Positions 8,006 to 64,000 of a stretch of 64,000 nt of DNA are shown here, one piece after another. Position numbers and translations under genes: made by a program. Source of the stretch: an uncultured Gammaproteobacteria bacterium (GTDB taxonomy: Bacteria; Patescibacteriota; Microgenomatia; Curtissbacterales; GWA2-41-24); NCBI GenBank assembly GCA_964492425.1, contig CAZBKB010000003.1, forward strand, positions 6,682 through 70,681, written 5' to 3'. The notes beneath the pieces are model-generated. The model worked only from the letters and a program-made list of their open reading frames with translations. It had not been told where the DNA came from and ran no database searches. The number at the start of each line of letters is the position of its first letter. Within the stretch, counting starts at the first letter, position 1.

Positions 8006-8431
8006 ATGACAAAAAAAGTTAAAACCTTCATTAAGTTAACCCTCAAAGGCGGACAAGCAACTGCCGCCCCCCCAGTTGGAACGGCACTCTCACCTCAAGG
8101 TATACCTATAATGGACTTTGTCAAAGCTTTTAACGACAAAACAAAAGATCAAATGGGGACTCCCCTGCCTGTTGTAATTACAGTTTTTGAAGACAGGACT
8201 TTCGCTTTTATTGTAAAAAAACCTCCTGTTGCAGTCCTTATTAAAAAAGCTCTGAACATTGAAAAAGGTGCCCAAACTACAAGCAAGCAGACTGTTGGCA
8301 AACTATCAATCAACCAGGTAAAAAAAATCGCTGAAGAAAAAATGCCGGACTTAAACACCAAAAACATAGATGCTGCAACAAGAATAGTCCAAGGAACCGC
8401 AAGATCCATGGGGGTAGAAACCGAAATTTAA
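8006..8431 (+). CDS. rplK: 50S ribosomal protein L11
   Basis: MTKKVKTFIKLTLKGGQATAAPPVGTALSPQGI... signature. 141 aa. Confidence 0.9.
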   Translation: MTKKVKTFIKLTLKGGQATAAPPVGTALSPQGIPIMDFVKAFNDKTKDQMGTPLPVVITVFEDRTFAFIVKKPPVAVLIKKALNIEKGAQTTSKQTVGKLSINQVKKIAEEKMPDLNTKNIDAATRIVQGTARSMGVETEI

Positions 8432-8463
8432 AATTTCAAATTTAAAATTAAAAATTAATTAAT

Positions 8464-22062: not shown

Positions 22063-22094
22063 GTTTATAGTTTATAGTTTATAGTTTATAGTTG
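22063..22094. repeat. Tandem octamer GTTTATAG x4 immediately upstream of the galT start
   Basis: ggtttatagtttatagtttatagtttatagttgac, directly 5' of the galT start codon on the minus strand. Confidence 0.6.
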
Positions 22095-22222: not shown

Positions 22223-22263
22223 TGAAAATTTAAAATTGAAAATTTAAAATTGAAAATTTAAAG
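22223..22263. repeat. Tandem 14-mer TGAAAATTTAAAAT x about 3 in the tagA-galT intergenic region
   Basis: tgaaaatttaaaattgaaaatttaaaattgaaaatttaaag. Confidence 0.6.
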
Positions 22264-24876: not shown

Positions 24877-25037
24877 TGTAAAACCCCGGCACCTAAAGCC
24901 GTCAAGGGGTAGGTATAAATTTATAGACGCAAATAGGCACTAAAGATATCAAACACGAATTGATAATTTTCAATTCGAAATTCGAAATGAAAATTTAAAA
25001 TTATAAATTAAAAATTTACCAGTTGCCTCCGGCCCCC

Positions 25038-36788: not shown

Positions 36789-37220
36789 TTAACAGCCGGA
36801 AGTACGGGTATACTTTTGATCTAACTCGATTTGAGATACAGACATATAGATTATCTTTAAGCTGCAAAGCGATTCCAAACTCAGCGTGTTTTTAAGCGAA
36901 AGCTGTGCAGCCAATTTATTGTCGATATAAACAGGCAGCGTCGAGCCCTCTACAAAAACGTAATACAAATTAGAATCGCTTGCATAAGTAATTTTGTAGC
37001 TGTCTGTCACCAGGGGGAAATTGGCTGTATTCACAACAACTTTATCCTTAAAAAAAGGCTTAAAAGTTACGCTAAGGCTCGCCTTATTAAGCGAATTTGG
37101 ATAATAAATGAGAGTAAAATAAACAAGAACAGCAAAAAAAACCAGAATTAGCCCCTGGAATGCTACCATCATTGGCTTGTGAATACCCTCTTCCAACTTA
37201 ATACCCCCTTGAAACCGCAA
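36789..37220 (-). CDS. Hypothetical membrane protein (TTG start)
   Basis: TM LILVFFAVLVYFTLIYY. No recognisable domain. Confidence 0.3.
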   Translation of the reverse strand: MRFQGGIKLEEGIHKPMMVAFQGLILVFFAVLVYFTLIYYPNSLNKASLSVTFKPFFKDKVVVNTANFPLVTDSYKITYASDSNLYYVFVEGSTLPVYIDNKLAAQLSLKNTLSLESLCSLKIIYMSVSQIELDQKYTRTSGC

Positions 37221-37531
37221 ACTGATGAAGAGATAGCAAAAGCGCGATAAACGTAAAAACTAAAATAGCCAAAGAAACGACAGGATCCAAAAGGAAACCG
37301 GTAAATGAATTGTCCCGACCAAAATGCCTCCTCCCAGGCTCCTGGAAACTGCGGCTTTTTTTCTTTTTCATGGGCAGGCTTAATTTAAGCTTATAACTTT
37401 AGCTTTACCCGTGTCAAACACAATACATCGTTACACATAGTTACATTGTTATATTGATATATTGGTTCTATAAAAAAGTTCTTAGACAATCTAACCATCT
37501 ATCCAACTATCTAACTAACTAACTAATAAAG

Positions 37532-37603
37532 TCGGGGTGCTGGGAATTGAACCCAGTGTCTCTCCGTCCCGAACGAAGCGTGTTACCGATACACTACACC
37601 CCG
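37532..37603 (-). tRNA. tRNA-Pro (anticodon CGG)
   Basis: Read on the reverse complement. Acceptor CGGGGTG/CACCCCG (C1-G72). D-arm GTGT-ATCGGTA-ACAC. Anticodon stem CTTCG/CGGAG with loop TTCGGGA (U33, CGG, G37). Variable loop AGACA. T-arm CTGGG-TTCAATT-CCCAG. Discriminator A. 72 nt. Confidence 0.8.
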
Positions 37604-37663: not shown

Positions 37664-39403
37664 TTACAGACAATTAGTACTGACTTGGGCAAGAAGTACA
37701 GATACATCCTGCAAGGTAACCGAACCATTAGGTGGACCCGACCTCCATGGCTGGCCCGGGAATGGACTTGGAGTTCTGTCATACTCTCGACCATCTGCAA
37801 TACCATTTCCATTAAAATCACTATTGTACCTCATCCCGACAGCATTAGGTTGGCCACCATCGACAGTGCCTACGTAATAAAGAGCTGCAAGCACATCACC
37901 AAGGGTAACTGCCCGGTTTTTTGGCGAATTTGGGCTGGAAGCAGATAGATTGGGCACTGGCACATCACCAAAATCCCACGGGTTATTTGGGTCTCTTTGG
38001 CCGCCAAGCCTCCAGTTCCCTCCAAGCTCCTTGGCATCACTGCAGCCATCACCATCTGTATCTGCCAAAACTGTCGGAGTTGTAAAACTCATAACAGACC
38101 CAAGACCAACTCCACCGCCATTGGCGGCAATTGCACAATAGTAATATGTGCTTCCAGAGGTCAAACCCGCAATTGGCTGGTTGTACGCAACATCACTTGT
38201 CCCCGCACCCAAGAGGCTCACGTCAGTCTTAGTACCGAAAGTGTCATTGCAATTTTCCCCCGGACTAACTGAATCATATCTAAACCAACCGCCTGTTGCA
38301 TCGCCATTTGGATTAGCAGTTCCATTTAAAGTTGCAGAAGTTGAAGTAAGATTTGTCTGAATATTTGTGATAACAGTCGGTGCAGGCTGTGAAAGCGTAT
38401 CAAAGCTCAAGACGGTGCCGAACCCGTAACCACCCTCGTTCCTTGCGATCGCACAGTAAAAATATTGGGTGGAAGAGTTTAGGCCATTAACCGCTTTGCT
38501 ATACGCAACCGCGCTTGTGCCAGCACCCAACGAAGTTACCGGACTCGTTGCAGTACCAAACGTGTCGTCGCAAGTACCCGGATCAACAGTGTCATATCTA
38601 AACCATCCGTCAGTAGCACTATCATTTGGATTACCACTGCCGTTCAAAGTTGCCGCAGAAGTTGTAACACCGCTCACAGCAGAAGTTATAACTGTCGGCG
38701 GAGCCGCAGCCAGCACATCCGGCTCAAAGTCATAAGTTGTACCATTAATGGTAAGGTTGTCCACATTACCGTCAAATACCTCTGGGGTTGATCCAGGCCC
38801 AATTTCCAACCTGAACCCACCCGTACCATCTGCCCTATTAACAATTACTGGCGAAGAAGAAAAAGTGTTTACAAACGCAACATACTCAGAAAGTGTTCCG
38901 CCGGTAAATCCGGGGAAAATACTCGAAGTCCAAGCACCTGATTCAGTATCCCATGTTTGCCATTGACCAGGTTGTTCTGCCCGTGCTTGTTCTTCAGGAT
39001 CAAAACGAACCACATCAGTACCATAATCAGTCGTCACGTCTATCAAAACAACCGGATATTTGTTCCCATCCGCAACGCTGGAAGCAAAGGTAGAGTAATC
39101 CAAATTGGTTACACTTGAAAGTTGGGTACCTGCAAAACTAGTACGGTGTACCGCTATTCTTGAATTACCATGAGTCCCCGTAAACAACCTTACGCTACCA
39201 GTACCAAGTGGTGCGATATCCGGACCGGTTACAAACGTACCGGATCCATCCGGGCTCTGAACCTGGAATGCCCAACCATTCATATTACCTTGTGAAACGA
39301 CAGTAGCCGCAAGAACCTGGTTGACAACAAGGGTTAGGACTAAGACAACAGAAAGTATAGGCAGTGCGAGAAGCTTAAATATTATATTCGCGTCTTTCTT
39401 CAT
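37664..39403 (-). CDS. Secreted protein with 3 FN3-like repeats and a C-terminal TSP3/dockerin-like Ca-binding module
   Basis: Signal peptide. Three repeats of the TLNG..NPN..T.GWFRYD...C.DTFGT...YYCAIA.N.GG.G.G.V.SF.T type. C-terminal DTDGDGCSDAKE and DFNGNGIADG aspartate-rich loops. Confidence 0.55.
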   Translation of the reverse strand: MKKDANIIFKLLALPILSVVLVLTLVVNQVLAATVVSQGNMNGWAFQVQSPDGSGTFVTGPDIAPLGTGSVRLFTGTHGNSRIAVHRTSFAGTQLSSVTNLDYSTFASSVADGNKYPVVLIDVTTDYGTDVVRFDPEEQARAEQPGQWQTWDTESGAWTSSIFPGFTGGTLSEYVAFVNTFSSSPVIVNRADGTGGFRLEIGPGSTPEVFDGNVDNLTINGTTYDFEPDVLAAAPPTVITSAVSGVTTSAATLNGSGNPNDSATDGWFRYDTVDPGTCDDTFGTATSPVTSLGAGTSAVAYSKAVNGLNSSTQYFYCAIARNEGGYGFGTVLSFDTLSQPAPTVITNIQTNLTSTSATLNGTANPNGDATGGWFRYDSVSPGENCNDTFGTKTDVSLLGAGTSDVAYNQPIAGLTSGSTYYYCAIAANGGGVGLGSVMSFTTPTVLADTDGDGCSDAKELGGNWRLGGQRDPNNPWDFGDVPVPNLSASSPNSPKNRAVTLGDVLAALYYVGTVDGGQPNAVGMRYNSDFNGNGIADGREYDRTPSPFPGQPWRSGPPNGSVTLQDVSVLLAQVSTNCL

Positions 39404-39549
39404 TCTACAATCGCGAAAGTATATACTAAATCGTCAAAATAATCAAGTCAAGACAGTCTAAGTAGATCAAACAATGTCGGTTACCGGTGCATGGTTACCA
39501 GTCTATGGTTCCTAAGTTTATTGTTTTTGGTTAATGGTTAATACGTCTC

Positions 39550-40260
39550 TTGCCACATACCGTCCGTCGCGCTACTATGGAATTAATGCCCGATATGATC
39601 GCAAACAGACTACAGACTACAGACTACAGCAAAAAAAGGACAGTAGTCGGTAGTCGGTCGACAATCAGCAAACCCGCCTTCACCCTCATCGAACTCCTGG
39701 TGGCTTGCCATCCGAAGCTTCAGCGAAGGAAAGCAATTCCTGGCTTTACTTTGATCGAATTGCTGGTGGTTATCTCAATTATCGCAATTCTTATGGCCGT
39801 TGCCACAGTTTCCTACACCAACGCCCAGCAAAAAGGCCGCGACAATAAACGCAAGGCAGACCTCAAAGCCGTCCAACAAGCACTGGAGATTTACTTCAAC
39901 CAAAATGGAAAGTACCCAATTGACGGAGGAGCCGGCGGTGAAATCACCTGCAATGTTACCGGTGACTCCAATCCCCAACCATGGGGCACAGAATTTGATT
40001 GTGATGAAAACGGCTCCTCAACTGACCCAACAAAAATAACTTATATGAATCCACTGCCCAAAGACCCAGTATTTGTTTCAGGTTCAAGCCAAAACTATTA
40101 TTATGACCAGACCGGCACAAGTACGTACATCCTCAGTGCCAGATTAGAAAACACTAAGGATCAGGATTATAGAGGACACCCTACCACAAATACTTCCTGT
40201 ACACCACAAGGCTGGACAGCAGCCAATCTTGAACGAAACTACTGCGTCATCAACCCGTAA
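39550..40260 (+). CDS. Type IV pilin-like protein (prepilin class III N-terminus). The true start is uncertain.
   Basis: Canonical KAIPG|FTLIELLVVISIIAILMAVA with E5. An unusually long 72-aa leader if started at 39550. An upstream degenerate second copy KPAFTLIELLVA sits in the same frame. Confidence 0.65.
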   Translation: MPHTVRRATMELMPDMIANRLQTTDYSKKRTVVGSRSTISKPAFTLIELLVACHPKLQRRKAIPGFTLIELLVVISIIAILMAVATVSYTNAQQKGRDNKRKADLKAVQQALEIYFNQNGKYPIDGGAGGEITCNVTGDSNPQPWGTEFDCDENGSSTDPTKITYMNPLPKDPVFVSGSSQNYYYDQTGTSTYILSARLENTKDQDYRGHPTTNTSCTPQGWTAANLERNYCVINP

Positions 40261-40460
40261 AATTTTTAACTTTAAACCTGTCCGCAATGCTACGCATAGC
40301 GTTGCAGGCGGACCGTAAACTGTAAACAAGAAACCAGCGCAGAGCGTTAGTTAATGGTTAATGGTTCGTGGTTAATCAGGGCTTTCTAAAAGCTGGGATA
40401 AAAACGATAAAACACAAACGACCTACAAAATTTGAACCTAATATGTTATGATGACGGCGT

Positions 40461-40727
40461 ATGACAAACAACGATTTAATAACCCAAGACCCAAAAATCT
40501 TAGGCGGTAAACCAATCGTCGCAGGTACAAGGATGTCGGTTGAAAACATTCTTGAGCTGCTTTCTTCTGGTATGGAAATTAGAGAAATACTCAAAGAATA
40601 TCCTTTCCTGGGGAAAAAACAGGTGCAGGCTGCAATCGGCTATGCTGCCAAGCTGATCAACAAAGAAGAGAGTTACGTCTTTCGCAAGCCCTCTACTGTC
40701 GCCCATGAAATTTCTGGCCGACGTTAA
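40461..40727 (+). CDS. DUF433 family antitoxin-like protein
   Basis: DPKILGGKPIVAGTRMSVENILELLSSGMEIREILKEYPFL matches the DUF433 consensus. Confidence 0.65.
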   Translation: MTNNDLITQDPKILGGKPIVAGTRMSVENILELLSSGMEIREILKEYPFLGKKQVQAAIGYAAKLINKEESYVFRKPSTVAHEISGRR

Positions 40728-40950
40728 TATTCCCCAATCCGTAATTTTATTTCTTAGCAAGGCCGGTTACGATGTTTTGGACATTAAGAAAAAAAGCCTA
40801 AAATTAACAGATACAGAAATTGTTAGTATCGCCAAAAAAGAGAACAGGACTATACTTACAAGAGACAAAGATTTCATCGCCTTGACCCAATATCCGCAGT
40901 CCAAGCAAGAAACTACTGCCTCATCAATCCGTAAGTTGGTTGACAGTTGA
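40705..40950 (+). CDS. DUF5615 (PIN-like) toxin-like protein, possibly C-terminally short
   Basis: MKFLADVNIPQSVILFLSKAGYDVLDI...ENRTILTRDKDF matches DUF5615. 23-nt overlap with the upstream DUF433 gene. Confidence 0.5.
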   Translation: MKFLADVNIPQSVILFLSKAGYDVLDIKKKSLKLTDTEIVSIAKKENRTILTRDKDFIALTQYPQSKQETTASSIRKLVDS

Positions 40951-62525: not shown

Positions 62526-63794
62526 TTAAGCAATTAATGCCAAAAGCAATAAGAGAACAGACATAGAACCACCCATTTCCGGAAGGTCAAAATCTACATC
62601 TCCAAGTACGTTAGAGTTTGCAGTGTTCTCTACTTCTACGTCTGCGTCTGCATCACCAGTGGTAACCGATGGATCACCACCATGGGTGTTGTCATTGACA
62701 TCGTTTTTACCGGTGTCCAAATCAACATCCACTTCGTTGCAGTCATTCTTGTGACCACGCCAGAACCATTCCTGGTATCCGCCTTTGCCACAATCATAAT
62801 CGTTTGTTTGGGTAATATACTTAACAGATGTCAAGTATGCCTTAACAGTATTGTCACTGTCAGAACCGTTACCCTTTACTAGAACGTCTAGGTCTTCAAG
62901 ACAACCACAACCTTCTAGCTCTGCTGCATTGAAGTTAGCCATATTACTGACATTAACGTCTGCATTTGCATCACCTGTGTCGATTGAAACATCGCCACCT
63001 GTGTTGTCATTTGCATCGTTTTTACCTGTATCGGCGTCTACGTCGACATCGTTAGAAATGTCAGCATAATTGGATTGGTTGATAGTGTTATTAGAAGTCA
63101 AATTAACTTTGACTGTATTGTCGCTATCAGAACCGTTTCCAGAAATTTCGACAGCTACTCCACCGCCGTTTCCGCCGGTAATAGCCGCCCAGTTTGCGTT
63201 TGCTTGGTTACTTACAGTAACGGTCGCATCTGCATCACCAGTTTCAACGGAAACATCACCACCCGTATTACCGTTTGCGTCGTTCTTGCCGGTGTCTAGA
63301 TCAACATCGACATCGTTATCGAACTCAGCATTGTTCGTCTGGGTGATGGAATTTGTGTTGTTAGACGTGAACTTTATTTTGTTCTCATCATTGTTTCCAT
63401 TGTCTGTTCCGTTACCCTTAATGGTTAAGGTAACGTCATCTGGACAACATCCGTCAACGCTAGCCTGGTTTGAATTAGCAGTGTTTGTAACACTTACTGT
63501 CGCATCAGCATCACCTGTGTCGATAGAAACATCGCCACCTGTGTTGTCGTTTGCGTCATTGTTACCAGTGTCAGCGTCTACATCTATGTTGTTGGAGATG
63601 TTAGCTGTATTGGTTTGGTTAACGGTAGTTGTGTTTGTTTGGTTAACTTCAACAGTGTTGTCGCTATCCGAACCGTTTCCAGAAATTTCAACTGTTGTTG
63701 CCGCAAGAGGCATAGCAAATGAGGAAACTACCAAAGCAGCTGTAGAAGCAGCAGTTGCAAGTTTTATTGCAATTTTGTTCATATTATTTTTCAC
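62526..63794 (-). CDS. Secreted 422-aa N/T/G/D-rich repeat protein with a C-terminal LPEMGG + hydrophobic tail
   Basis: Signal peptide. Four repeats of NGSDSDNTV.VN.TN...N.DVD.DTGKNDANDNTGGDVS(I/V)(D/E)TGDA(D/N)A.V.V(S/T)N. Cys pairs (DGCCPDD, EGCGCLED). C-terminal DLPEMGGSMSVLLLLLALIA. Confidence 0.5.
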   Translation of the reverse strand: MKNNMNKIAIKLATAASTAALVVSSFAMPLAATTVEISGNGSDSDNTVEVNQTNTTTVNQTNTANISNNIDVDADTGNNDANDNTGGDVSIDTGDADATVSVTNTANSNQASVDGCCPDDVTLTIKGNGTDNGNNDENKIKFTSNNTNSITQTNNAEFDNDVDVDLDTGKNDANGNTGGDVSVETGDADATVTVSNQANANWAAITGGNGGGVAVEISGNGSDSDNTVKVNLTSNNTINQSNYADISNDVDVDADTGKNDANDNTGGDVSIDTGDANADVNVSNMANFNAAELEGCGCLEDLDVLVKGNGSDSDNTVKAYLTSVKYITQTNDYDCGKGGYQEWFWRGHKNDCNEVDVDLDTGKNDVNDNTHGGDPSVTTGDADADVEVENTANSNVLGDVDFDLPEMGGSMSVLLLLLALIA

Positions 63795-64000
63795 CTCCTT
63801 TCATCCTTTGAAGCTTTAGCGAAAGAGGACTTCCTTGCTAAACTTCTTTAATTCCGTTAACTCTCCTCCAACACCTTATGCGAAAGAGAAAACGAAAACG
63901 GAGGCTCATCACCTAGACAATATTATCTAAGTAACGAACCTCCGTTTGCGGTCGGCTCTGTCGTCCGTAGCCTTAGCAAAGGACGACCGTTATTCAATTT

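Follow-up and report, generated by a model that had tools for sequence, protein, structure and literature searches.

Type IV pili are thought to serve members of the Candidate Phyla Radiation (CPR; Patescibacteria) in the attachment to their hosts and in DNA uptake. The pilin gene that we describe here resides in a 64,000-nucleotide (nt) stretch of contig CAZBKB010000003.1 (GenBank assembly GCA_964492425.1), to which we refer throughout as the window, and its 5' part invites comparison with several described systems. The opa genes of Neisseria carry CTCTT repeats in the region coding for the signal peptide, REP/REPIN-like elements are short palindromic, hairpin-targeting small mobile elements, and the STRR sequences of cyanobacteria are intergenic heptamer repeats. 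Comparable to the latter are direct repeats of the heptamer TAACTGA that are found between genes of Beggiatoaceae, Cyanobacteria and Bacteroidetes (PMC4679880). In Escherichia coli K1, AAGACTC heptanucleotide repeats, 3-53 units in number, are located in the 5' coding region of neuO (PMC13001214). Class III leaders of prepilins normally comprise 6-26 amino acids, and those of type IVb pilins about 15-30 (PMC4471445).

Our best reading of the locus, held with moderate confidence for all its components taken jointly, is that of a major type IV pilin gene of a Curtissbacteria-like CPR bacterium in which four features come together: the mRNA would be leaderless, a long prepilin leader would be discarded through cleavage at the second of two motif copies, heptads within this leader would toggle the reading frame, and a 66-nt insertion would be mobile through recombination. 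The open reading frame (ORF) as listed (39550-40260, plus strand) encodes 236 amino acids and contains both prepilin motif copies in frame. Pfam recognizes the second copy only (PF07963, N_methyl; E = 3.5e-12; residues 65-85), and the cleavage and methylation motif G/F-x-x-x-E (the slash marks the cleavage site), followed by about 21 hydrophobic residues, can be read there directly as FTLIELLVVISIIAILMAVATV. The protein has 1545 homologues, the top ones being pilins of Candidatus Curtissbacteria (CPR/Microgenomates), and the alignment of the mature part contains 38 invariant columns.

A preliminary description of this DNA had reported two in-frame copies of the prepilin motif that are written in different codons, and this is what we find: the segments coding for FTLIELLV (39679-39701 and 39745-39767) lie 66 nt apart, are 74% identical at the DNA level, and represent the sole perfect matches to the degenerate pattern in 64 kb, where 0.12 would be expected by chance. 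The prepilin peptidase would be expected to cut at the second copy, between Gly-1 and Phe+1 (39744/39745); no full hydrophobic helix follows the other copy. The predicted mature N-terminus would then be FTLIELLVVISII, that is, methyl-Phe-TLIELLVVISII, and the first copy would merely form part of the cleaved leader.

The long leader, its probable translation and its heptad repeats

To escape the bias of gene callers, we gathered 45 metagenomic loci with the mature domain alone, from which the motif had been trimmed off. The relatives possess a conserved ATG (TTAATGCC or ATGnnnCTGCC) 36-168 nt upstream of Gly-1, which is in frame and followed by a stop-free stretch in 30 of 33 distinct loci; the lengths of these 30 leaders are all multiples of three. 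Over 31 leaders (1067 codons), no stop codon is present in the pilin frame, while the other two frames contain 86 and 83, statistics that are partly conditioned on recognising the conserved ATG motif. Stop codons are avoided by an alternation of units, as in GTTAATG/GTTCATG (read as VNGSWLMVH) and GTATCTA/GTATCTG, the unit that would otherwise produce a stop carrying a substitution. This conservation of the frame and the bias against stops indicate that the upstream part of the leader is translated; the leader repeats would be kept in frame and free of stops because they are read by the ribosome and discarded only afterward.

In the window, translation most likely starts at ATG 39586 and proceeds through a leader of 53 amino acids, MPDMIANRLQTTDYSKKRTVVGSRSTISKPAFTLIELLVACHPKLQRRKAIPG followed by FTLIELLVV, which includes the strings TVVGSR and STISKPAFTLIELLVACHPK. 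In 29 of 32 related loci, the best -35/-10 pair has its -10 box 6-7 nt ahead of the conserved ATG; a Shine-Dalgarno-like sequence in front of this ATG is lacking in 31 of the 32. Because the promoter sits directly on the ATG without a Shine-Dalgarno sequence, the pilin mRNA is probably leaderless, with transcription beginning at the A of ATG 39586. Two other candidate starts were set aside, since TTG 39550 is the -35 box itself and ATG 39577 overlaps the -10 box.

The predicted leader is hydrophilic and basic, yet it contains FTLIELLV and exceeds the 6-26 residues of short hydrophilic class III leaders. The preliminary description had envisaged either a leader of about 60-70 amino acids or non-canonical initiation. 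A long leader is indeed a trait of the whole family, its length has to be corrected to 53 residues, and the non-canonical start finds no support in the conservation of the GTG and ATT codons concerned. Among the best 120 homologues, nearly all called leaders are far longer than normal (median 31, maximum about 63 amino acids), and many of them begin with MP or MxLP; classical short leaders (MKRG/, MPKLKKG/) also occur in the same pilin family.

Two heptad arrays of opposite orientation form the arms of a hairpin within this leader (Table 1), which bears out the earlier claim that an upstream (CAGACTA)3 tract is partly complementary to sequence downstream of it. The hairpin has a folding energy of -18.9 kcal/mol (z = -5.4), is matched by 0 of 200 shuffles, and starts some 22 nt downstream of the position predicted for the 5' end of the mRNA. 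A typical leader of the relatives likewise consists of a heptad array, an A-rich loop and an inverted array, and some leaders contain extra GC-rich inserts of 21-33 nt that are present or absent between near-identical genes. The lag-7 autocorrelation is highest in the leaders (0.50), lower in the 63 nt preceding the promoter-proximal ATG (0.40), and at background level (about 0.26) in the pilin body (0.25). Leaders of the relatives also fold more strongly than body segments of equal length (mean z of -1.68 versus -0.25; Wilcoxon p = 3e-4). Shuffles predict 5.1 exact period-7 tandem duplications for the window, which contains 12, four of them within 39528-40366, i.e., in about 0.85 kb or 1.3% of its length. 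Collectively, these data portray a leader that would be a hypervariable modular segment, assembled from tandem and inverted heptad repeats and from short GC-rich hairpin inserts.

The heptamer tract is located inside the inferred ORF, and its unit is not a multiple of three, as is characteristic of contingency loci. For this latter reason, a change by one unit would switch the pilin OFF, and slipped-strand mispairing would gain or lose such a unit; when the loss or gain of one unit was simulated in the window tract, stubs of 17 or 24 amino acids resulted. A corresponding difference exists among the relatives. Locus L137 has three CCATTCA units where L138 and L139 have four, and over about 240 nt these loci otherwise exhibit only two small differences far upstream. 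With four units, the 189-amino-acid prepilin is intact; with three, the ORF that the conserved ATG opens is only 50 codons long and the pilin lies in another frame. This is a natural ON/OFF polymorphism in a relative, and a phase-variable mechanism is plausible for the window pilin as well.

The 5' modules of L115 and L118b, about 98% identical, differ by one AATTTTC unit. In these two loci (L115:1330-1400; L118:1976-2040), the conserved ATG opens a short upstream ORF, which reads MPFLKFSIFNLKF before its stop codon (13 codons) in L115 and is shorter, ending with TGA, in L118b; the pilin ORF has a new ATG a few bases past this stop, within ...TCTAAATG. Such an arrangement could represent the fixed rescue of an out-of-frame state. 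Two shorter members of protein clusters (P0126 and P0143), considered as frameshift variants, proved to be alternative start calls, the DNA being identical in the case of P0126 and in the same frame in the case of P0143. Period-7 arrays with the units (GTTTATA)x4.4, (AAAATTT)x5.4 and (AAATTTA)x4.7 also occur elsewhere in the window, in intergenic positions beside unrelated genes (22063-22093, 22225-22262, 8424-8456 and 24956-25016).

The duplicated motif and the 66-nt unit

The 66-nt unit consists of the first motif copy, a 30-nt GC-rich core and an 8-nt arm that pairs with the second copy. Between the two copies lies a spacer of 42 nt, whose core has the form GCTYGCCATCCGAAGC-NNNN-GCGWAGGAAA and whose translation includes AIPGFTLIELLVV... 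and CHPK. Six CPR pilin genes share this architecture (those of the window, L001, L002, L118/L123, L134 and L135), although their leaders are unrelated and their bodies have diverged. The window and L001 do not differ in the core, compared with an identity of 75-80% in the flanking motif codons, and eight of the codons in the core exhibit zero synonymous changes across all six genes. In L084, a related element without any duplication is translated in another frame (LLALRSFSKGG), and a further one separates the -35 box from the -10 box in the orthologous promoter of L091. Because of its appearance in another frame and in a promoter, the spacer core is to be regarded as an element at the nucleotide level.

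The pairing between the 8-nt arm and the second copy, which we term stem B (Table 1), comprises 8 bp. All 48 of 48 cells are paired in the six genes, and three of the eight pairs show compensatory double changes, with the versions AATAATTC/GAATTATT in L001 and AGCAACTC/GAGTTGCT in L134 and L135. This statistic is attained by only 3 of 500 shuffles, and in slid controls at most 52% of the cells are paired. The pairing is also found in the single-copy genes L086 and L089, where the reading frame is different, and in 9 of 43 loci overall. The invariance of the core and the covariation of stem B point to a putative function as RNA or DNA, or else to templated (quasi-palindrome) correction.

Between the motif copies there is no ATG, as had been noted; an in-frame GTG does exist at 39700-39702, although it is not conserved in the relatives. 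The Val codon at this candidate internal start takes the forms GTG, GTC, GTG, GTG, GTC and ATC across the six genes; in place of the ATT, two genes have ACT, a change that is explained by the covariation of stem B. Three further candidate features did not hold: hairpin A, between the end of copy 1 and the beginning of the spacer, shows good pairing in L002 and L118b and is neither conserved nor covarying; stem C (GAATTGC with GCAATTC of codons 14-16) is part of the minimum free energy fold of the window and is lost in L001 and L134; and an internal promoter in the spacer, with TTGCCA as the -35 box, has no acceptable -10 box.

Precisely these 66 nt are missing from locus L136. Its body is closely related to the L001 body, the two products sharing a 90%-identity protein cluster, and the one motif of L136 is chimeric, with the 5' portion of copy 1 joined to the 3' portion of copy 2. 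L115 and L118b have the promoter, the leader and copy 1 in common; beyond copy 1, L118b has the 66 nt and then a body with an identity of about 75%, as estimated by eye. Furthermore, the same body is found with unrelated leaders within 90%-identity clusters. Because of these three kinds of cases, the conserved motif sequence is, as judged from such comparisons, a recombination joint, and the promoter-leader part an exchangeable module. The 66-nt unit would move among pilin genes, and would be lost again when recombination takes place at this motif.

We searched exhaustively with phmmer, taking as query the 49 residues that cover both motif copies, and recovered 157 cluster representatives. Two motifs are present in 120 of the 147 newly returned representatives that we inspected, mostly 21-23 residues apart; the spacers in these proteins include ACHPKPRRRTTRSA, ACEPKPWRRQVRRA and ACQPKLQRRQARGA, and some proteins have three copies or longer inserts. 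DUF1559 was detected in two of ten duplicated-motif proteins scanned. Outside the CPR the duplications are known at the protein level, and the DNA comparison of the 66 nt covers the six CPR genes.

The core CCGAAGCCNTGGCGAAGG is present in 75 IMG/VR contigs (L144-L218), by a rough estimate far above its chance frequency. Its 31 distinct copies possess a covarying 6-bp stem around a 14-nt loop (GAAGCCTTGGCGAA), preceded by GnCYTG on the 5' side and often followed by TCAT on the 3' side; 98.9% of the cells are paired and three pairs covary, in sequences that were pre-selected for three flanking pairs. Where the element includes TCAT, genes on the opposite strand begin with ATGA-CC-N-CCTTCGCCAAGGCTTCGG, read as M-[TI]-x-LRQGFGGQ. 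From its sequence, this looks like an undescribed small repeat family at the 5' ends of genes. A covariance model was built from the 31 copies, all of them from other contigs, and its matches are listed in Table 1. The window spacer keeps CTTG, CCGAAGC and GCGAAGG, and its membership in the family rests on homology with the spacers of L002 and L134. Two element copies are located near the end of the window, both upstream of a gene for a repetitive secreted protein (62526-63794, minus strand): one at 63949-63998 (GTCGTCC-GTAGCCTTAGCAAA-GGACGAC) with an intact 7-bp stem, and another at 63803-63830 (TCCTTT-GAAGCTTTAGCG-AAAGAGGA), the complementary strand of which places the element beside the Shine-Dalgarno sequence of this gene.

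The exact CPR spacer has no match in IMG/VR, and a tblastn search of plasmids with a GC-rich duplicated motif found none either. Rfam returned only tRNAs elsewhere when the whole window was scanned at the gathering threshold, only chance-level matches in an E-value scan of 39400-40450, and no match for 14 viral loci carrying the hairpin element. In the library of papers searched we found no match for the spacer peptide strings, the element core or its translations, and nothing relevant on CPR pilin leaders and on phase variation in Patescibacteria. The 66-nt hairpin-bearing insert is apparently undescribed. We tentatively put forward, as a rather doubtful extension of these findings, that the 66-nt unit might be the footprint of an undescribed small hairpin element that specifically colonises the conserved N-terminal coding sequence of prepilin-type genes in several phyla (CPR pilins and DUF1559-type proteins); by regenerating the motif as a direct repeat it would allow the host gene to survive, and it would be translated and clipped off together with the leader. 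Together with the heptad hairpins, the leader would then be both a translated landing pad for mobile or slippery DNA and a device for ON/OFF switching and the tuning of expression, and stem B would be a functional part of the element, serving, for example, its propagation or the control of pilin translation.

Table 1. Coordinates (window positions unless a locus is named) of the features at the pilin locus and matches of the hairpin covariance model.
Feature	Position	Strand	Remarks
Upstream four-heptad array AGTTTAT TGTTTTT GGTTAAT GGTTAAT	39515..39542	+	Immediately before the -35 box
Sigma-70-like promoter	39550..39578	+	-35 TTGCCA (39550-39555), 17-nt spacer, -10 TACTAT (39573-39578)
Inferred 53-codon leader (class III signal peptide)	39586..39744	+	ATG 39586 to Gly-1 (GGC 39742-39744)
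(ACAGACT)x3.6 tract	39605..39629	+	5' arm of leader hairpin; candidate slippage tract
(GTAGTCG)x2.3	39643..39658	+	3' arm of leader hairpin; hairpin about 39608-39659
First, truncated motif copy (A/FTLIELLV)	39676..39702	+	No hydrophobic stretch after it; predicted part of the leader
30-nt GC-rich spacer core (GCTTGCCATCCGAAGCTTCAGCGAAGGAAA)	39703..39732	+	Conserved at nucleotide level; diverged member of the hairpin family with loop GAAGCYTNRGCGAA
Stem B, 5' arm (AGCAATTC)	39732..39739	+	Pairs with 39757-39764
Mature pilin	39745..40260	+	171 amino acids plus stop; begins with Phe+1 of the second, canonical motif FTLIELLVVISIIAIL
Stem B, 3' arm (GAATTGCT)	39757..39764	+	Glu5-Leu7 codons of the second copy
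Downstream four-heptad array AGTTAAT GGTTAAT GGTTCGT GGTTAAT	40349..40376	+	79% identical to 39515-39542 (28 nt each)
Relic of pilin 3' end, AACTACTGCCTCATCAATCCGTAA (NYCLINP, stop)	40909..40934	+	After the DUF433/DUF5615 pair; within the end of ORF 40705-40950
Covariance-model match	L002 and L134 spacers		E = 4.5e-4
Covariance-model match	L091 promoter insert		E = 0.035
Covariance-model match, intact-stem copy	63949-63998		E = 0.12

Flanking arrays, mosaicism and gene neighbourhood

The sequence GGTTAATGGTTAAT at 39529-39542 recurs, with one mismatch and accompanied by degenerate units, at 40349-40376, and further repeats with a period of 14 nt are found at 39479-39510. These are the direct repeats that had been described as bracketing the gene. 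They are present, but a role as specific cassette borders is not supported: heptad arrays are a general feature upstream of promoters, before each promoter in the tandem pilin arrays of relatives, and the upstream array has an orthologue in L091; downstream heptad arrays, in contrast, are missing in the relatives checked. The downstream array may be what is left of an array that once preceded the promoter of a neighbouring, now lost pilin gene. Searches of the 64-kb window with the pilin (tblastn and blastn) for silent cassettes uncovered only a 26-nt relic of the 3' end, which is 92% identical to 40235-40260 (blastn) and is matched in tblastn as well. What remains at 40909-40934 points to the deletion or replacement of most of a second pilin gene or of an earlier allele. 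The locus had initially been viewed as a recombining or phase-variable cassette. Recombination is evident from the mosaics, from the presence or absence of the 66 nt and from this relic, and phase variation is plausible in view of the three versus four units in a relative and the translated tract; silent cassettes are not supported by the search of the window.

The proteins P0031 and P0094 are identical in the leader and the first ~90 residues (a stretch of ~92 amino acids) and then continue with unrelated C-terminal domains, a clear case of body exchange downstream of the conserved N-terminal helix.

The order of a large secreted protein (minus strand), the pilin, a DUF5656 protein and a CAP-domain protein is kept in several contigs of 10 kb to 1 Mb, and in the window a DUF433/DUF5615 pair recognized by Pfam is inserted 3' of the pilin. 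The DUF5615 ORF is short (81 amino acids versus a profile of 110 positions). On the minus strand at 36789-37371, beside a tRNA gene (37532-37603), two ORFs of 57 and 143 amino acids overlap; the first has GFLLDPVVSLAILVFTFIALLL, a weak prepilin-like N-terminus with a degenerate motif (two mismatches), and no Pfam match, and the pair may be a degenerate or frameshifted minor pilin. In relatives, genes of the 23S_rRNA_IVP or bAvd fold adjoin the pilin (L002:1432-1788; L137:2019-2393; L138:2115-2489; L143:1613-2008). The bAvd fold is that of an accessory protein of diversity-generating retroelements; these short contigs showed no reverse transcriptase, and no bAvd-type gene was recognised beside the window pilin. 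The GC skew is negative in nearly all 2-kb bins of the window (1-64000; cumulative -4.68), irrespective of the orientation of the genes. The complete genome of a Microgenomates bacterium reportedly has an unusual strand composition disparity, as stated in the title of one paper.

Competing explanations and known systems

Several points weigh against our reading of the locus. Our placement of the start codon, transcription start and cleavage site is inferred, as are the rate of switching and any role of the hairpins, and the frame statistics carry the conditioning mentioned above. The tract of the window, with just 3.6 units, is short if it is to work as a high-rate contingency locus. The single clean ON/OFF polymorphism that we found belongs to a relative and not to the window gene, and the L137 variant may have arisen through an ordinary inactivating mutation. 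The ON state is found in nearly all assembled loci, as would fit consensus assemblies or plain purifying selection. The window spacer, a TTCA variant with an eroded stem, is not listed by the covariance model at E <= 10. A prepilin peptidase, for which the preliminary description had suggested to look, was not detected, and neither PilD, PilB, PilC nor other pilus machinery is among the 26 window ORFs scanned against Pfam. Moreover, simple tolerance of a discarded segment does not account for the invariance of the core or the covariation of stem B, both of which suggest a putative function or a templated mutational process.

The strongest competitor, which we rate as a real but clearly subordinate possibility, holds that the repeats, the hairpins and the 66-nt insert are selfish or mutational debris (from slippage, template switching or REP-like insertions) accumulating in a part of the protein that is discarded, without switching and without a role of the RNA, selection merely purging frameshifts and stops. 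The extreme diversity of the leaders, one body carrying unrelated leaders, the members with classical short leaders, the 21-33-nt inserts that come and go between near-identical genes, the heptads that also fill non-coding DNA upstream of the promoter, and the in-frame state of most assembled loci would all be expected from debris. It would not account for a spacer core that is invariant at synonymous sites while the flanking codons diverge, for the pairing of stem B kept by compensatory changes, for leaders that are significantly more structured than body segments, or for the concentration of heptads at the pilin locus.

The covariation of stem B would also be in keeping with hairpins that are functional as RNA, the heptad hairpin stabilising the transcript or tuning initiation and stem B, within which the cleavage-site codons are enclosed, modulating translation or membrane targeting, with slippage as a side effect; this we consider slightly less probable still. 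The leaderless geometry, with a hairpin close to the predicted 5' end, the family-wide enrichment of structure in the leaders, and the recurrence of stem B in another frame in L086 and L089 fit such a role. However, neither the sequence nor the position of the hairpins is conserved between leaders, and many leaders (L086, L089, L100 and L107) have z values near 0; stem B occurs in a minority of the loci, Rfam contains no matching family, and templated repair can likewise give rise to compensatory-looking changes in short inverted repeats.

Antigenic variation of the Neisseria type, that is, gene conversion from silent cassettes with the GGTTAAT arrays and the duplicated motif as borders, appears unlikely to us. 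It would be in keeping with the mosaic 5' modules and bodies, with P0031 and P0094, with the relic, and with flanking arrays that are 79% identical; it is contradicted by the absence of a second pilin-body copy from the window, by relatives that have no downstream arrays and in all of which the upstream arrays belong to the promoter region, and by a mosaicism observed between strains or metagenomes instead of within one genome.

Very improbable is a 5' untranslated region or upstream ORF that precedes the second motif, with translation starting at GTG 39700 (MACHPKLQRRKAIPG/F) or ATT 39736 (MPG/F). Although a Shine-Dalgarno-like GAAGGA is placed 5 nt before the ATT, the GTG would yield a leader of classical length and charge, and L115 and L118b demonstrate that the conserved ATG can be out of frame (short upstream ORF, new ATG), neither the Val nor the ATT codon is conserved among the six genes, and the upstream part is read, according to the statistics on frame and stops.

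We give even less credence to programmed translational bypassing of the T4 gene 60 or mitochondrial byp type, in which copy 1 would be the take-off site, the 66-nt hairpin gap would be skipped, and copy 2 would be the landing site of a single-motif prepilin. Mobile GC-rich inserts in coding sequences are a hallmark of byps, direct repeats flank the GC-rich hairpin element just 3' of copy 1, and the GAAGGA lies before copy 2. Yet the Leu7/Val8 codons of the two copies are unmatched in four of six genes, no stop follows the putative take-off site, and the gap is in frame and stop-free in 6 of 6 genes, as ordinary translation would explain; hits obtained at the protein level are biased in this direction. 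An assembly artefact or chimeric join at the conserved motif can practically be dismissed: conserved repeats are classic sites of misassembly, but the same 227-amino-acid product (or a one-residue variant) is encoded on four contigs in NCBI, JGI and ENA assemblies, and five more genes from unrelated samples display the same 66-nt architecture with its covarying stem, as do ~120 protein clusters at the level of the motif duplication.

Our favoured combination of a leaderless mRNA, a long discarded leader, frame-toggling heptads and a mobile 66-nt insertion bears on the question how unculturable CPR cells vary or regulate their pili, as the locus suggests a leaderless mRNA and an exceptionally long, repeat-encoded leader for a major pilin. 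If true, toggling through heptanucleotide slippage would represent a contingency-locus strategy in an environmental episymbiont rather than in a pathogen. The locus further suggests that small hairpin elements collect in a cleavable leader as in a sink, and that this leader is also the joint at which promoter-leader modules are swapped between bodies. The duplicated FTLIELLV and its spacer affect annotation with respect to the start codon and the prediction of the signal peptide, and they may mark a new kind of small element.

Like neuO and opa, the window pilin has a repeat whose unit is not a multiple of three in a dispensable N-terminal coding part of a gene for a surface structure, where the unit number sets the frame. 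Tracts in the pilin family comprise 2-5 units, unlike those of neuO, and unlike in both systems the repeats have an inverted partner with which they form a hairpin, their units are gene-specific, and they belong to a class III prepilin leader whose mRNA is probably leaderless. With type IV and IVb pilins (PMC4471445) the protein shares G/FTLIELLVV with Glu5, the hydrophobic alpha1-N helix, and a hydrophilic, basic leader ending with Gly; it departs from them in a leader of 53 residues that has a second motif copy inside and is built of nucleotide repeats. As in Neisseria pilE/pilS (PMC4877100 for context), a conserved N-terminal coding sequence stands beside a hypervariable body, and mosaics imply recombination at conserved segments. 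Here, however, the window holds no silent cassettes, the leader and promoter are the most variable and most exchanged module, and the exchange is seen between strains only.

The hairpin family resembles REP/REPIN elements in its unit of ~30-40 nt, its covarying 6-bp stem with conserved loop and flanks, and its presence in many unrelated contigs in either orientation near gene starts. It differs from them in that no associated transposase was identified, and in that the element of the pilin genes lies in frame within coding sequence, has an eroded stem, and is flanked by direct repeats of 24-27 nt that are not a typical target-site duplication. The heptad arrays, finally, share with TAACTGA and STRR repeats the short tandem 7-nt organization (2-6 copies) near translation starts; unlike these, they have no fixed unit, are centred on one gene family, occur in inverted pairs, and are translated.

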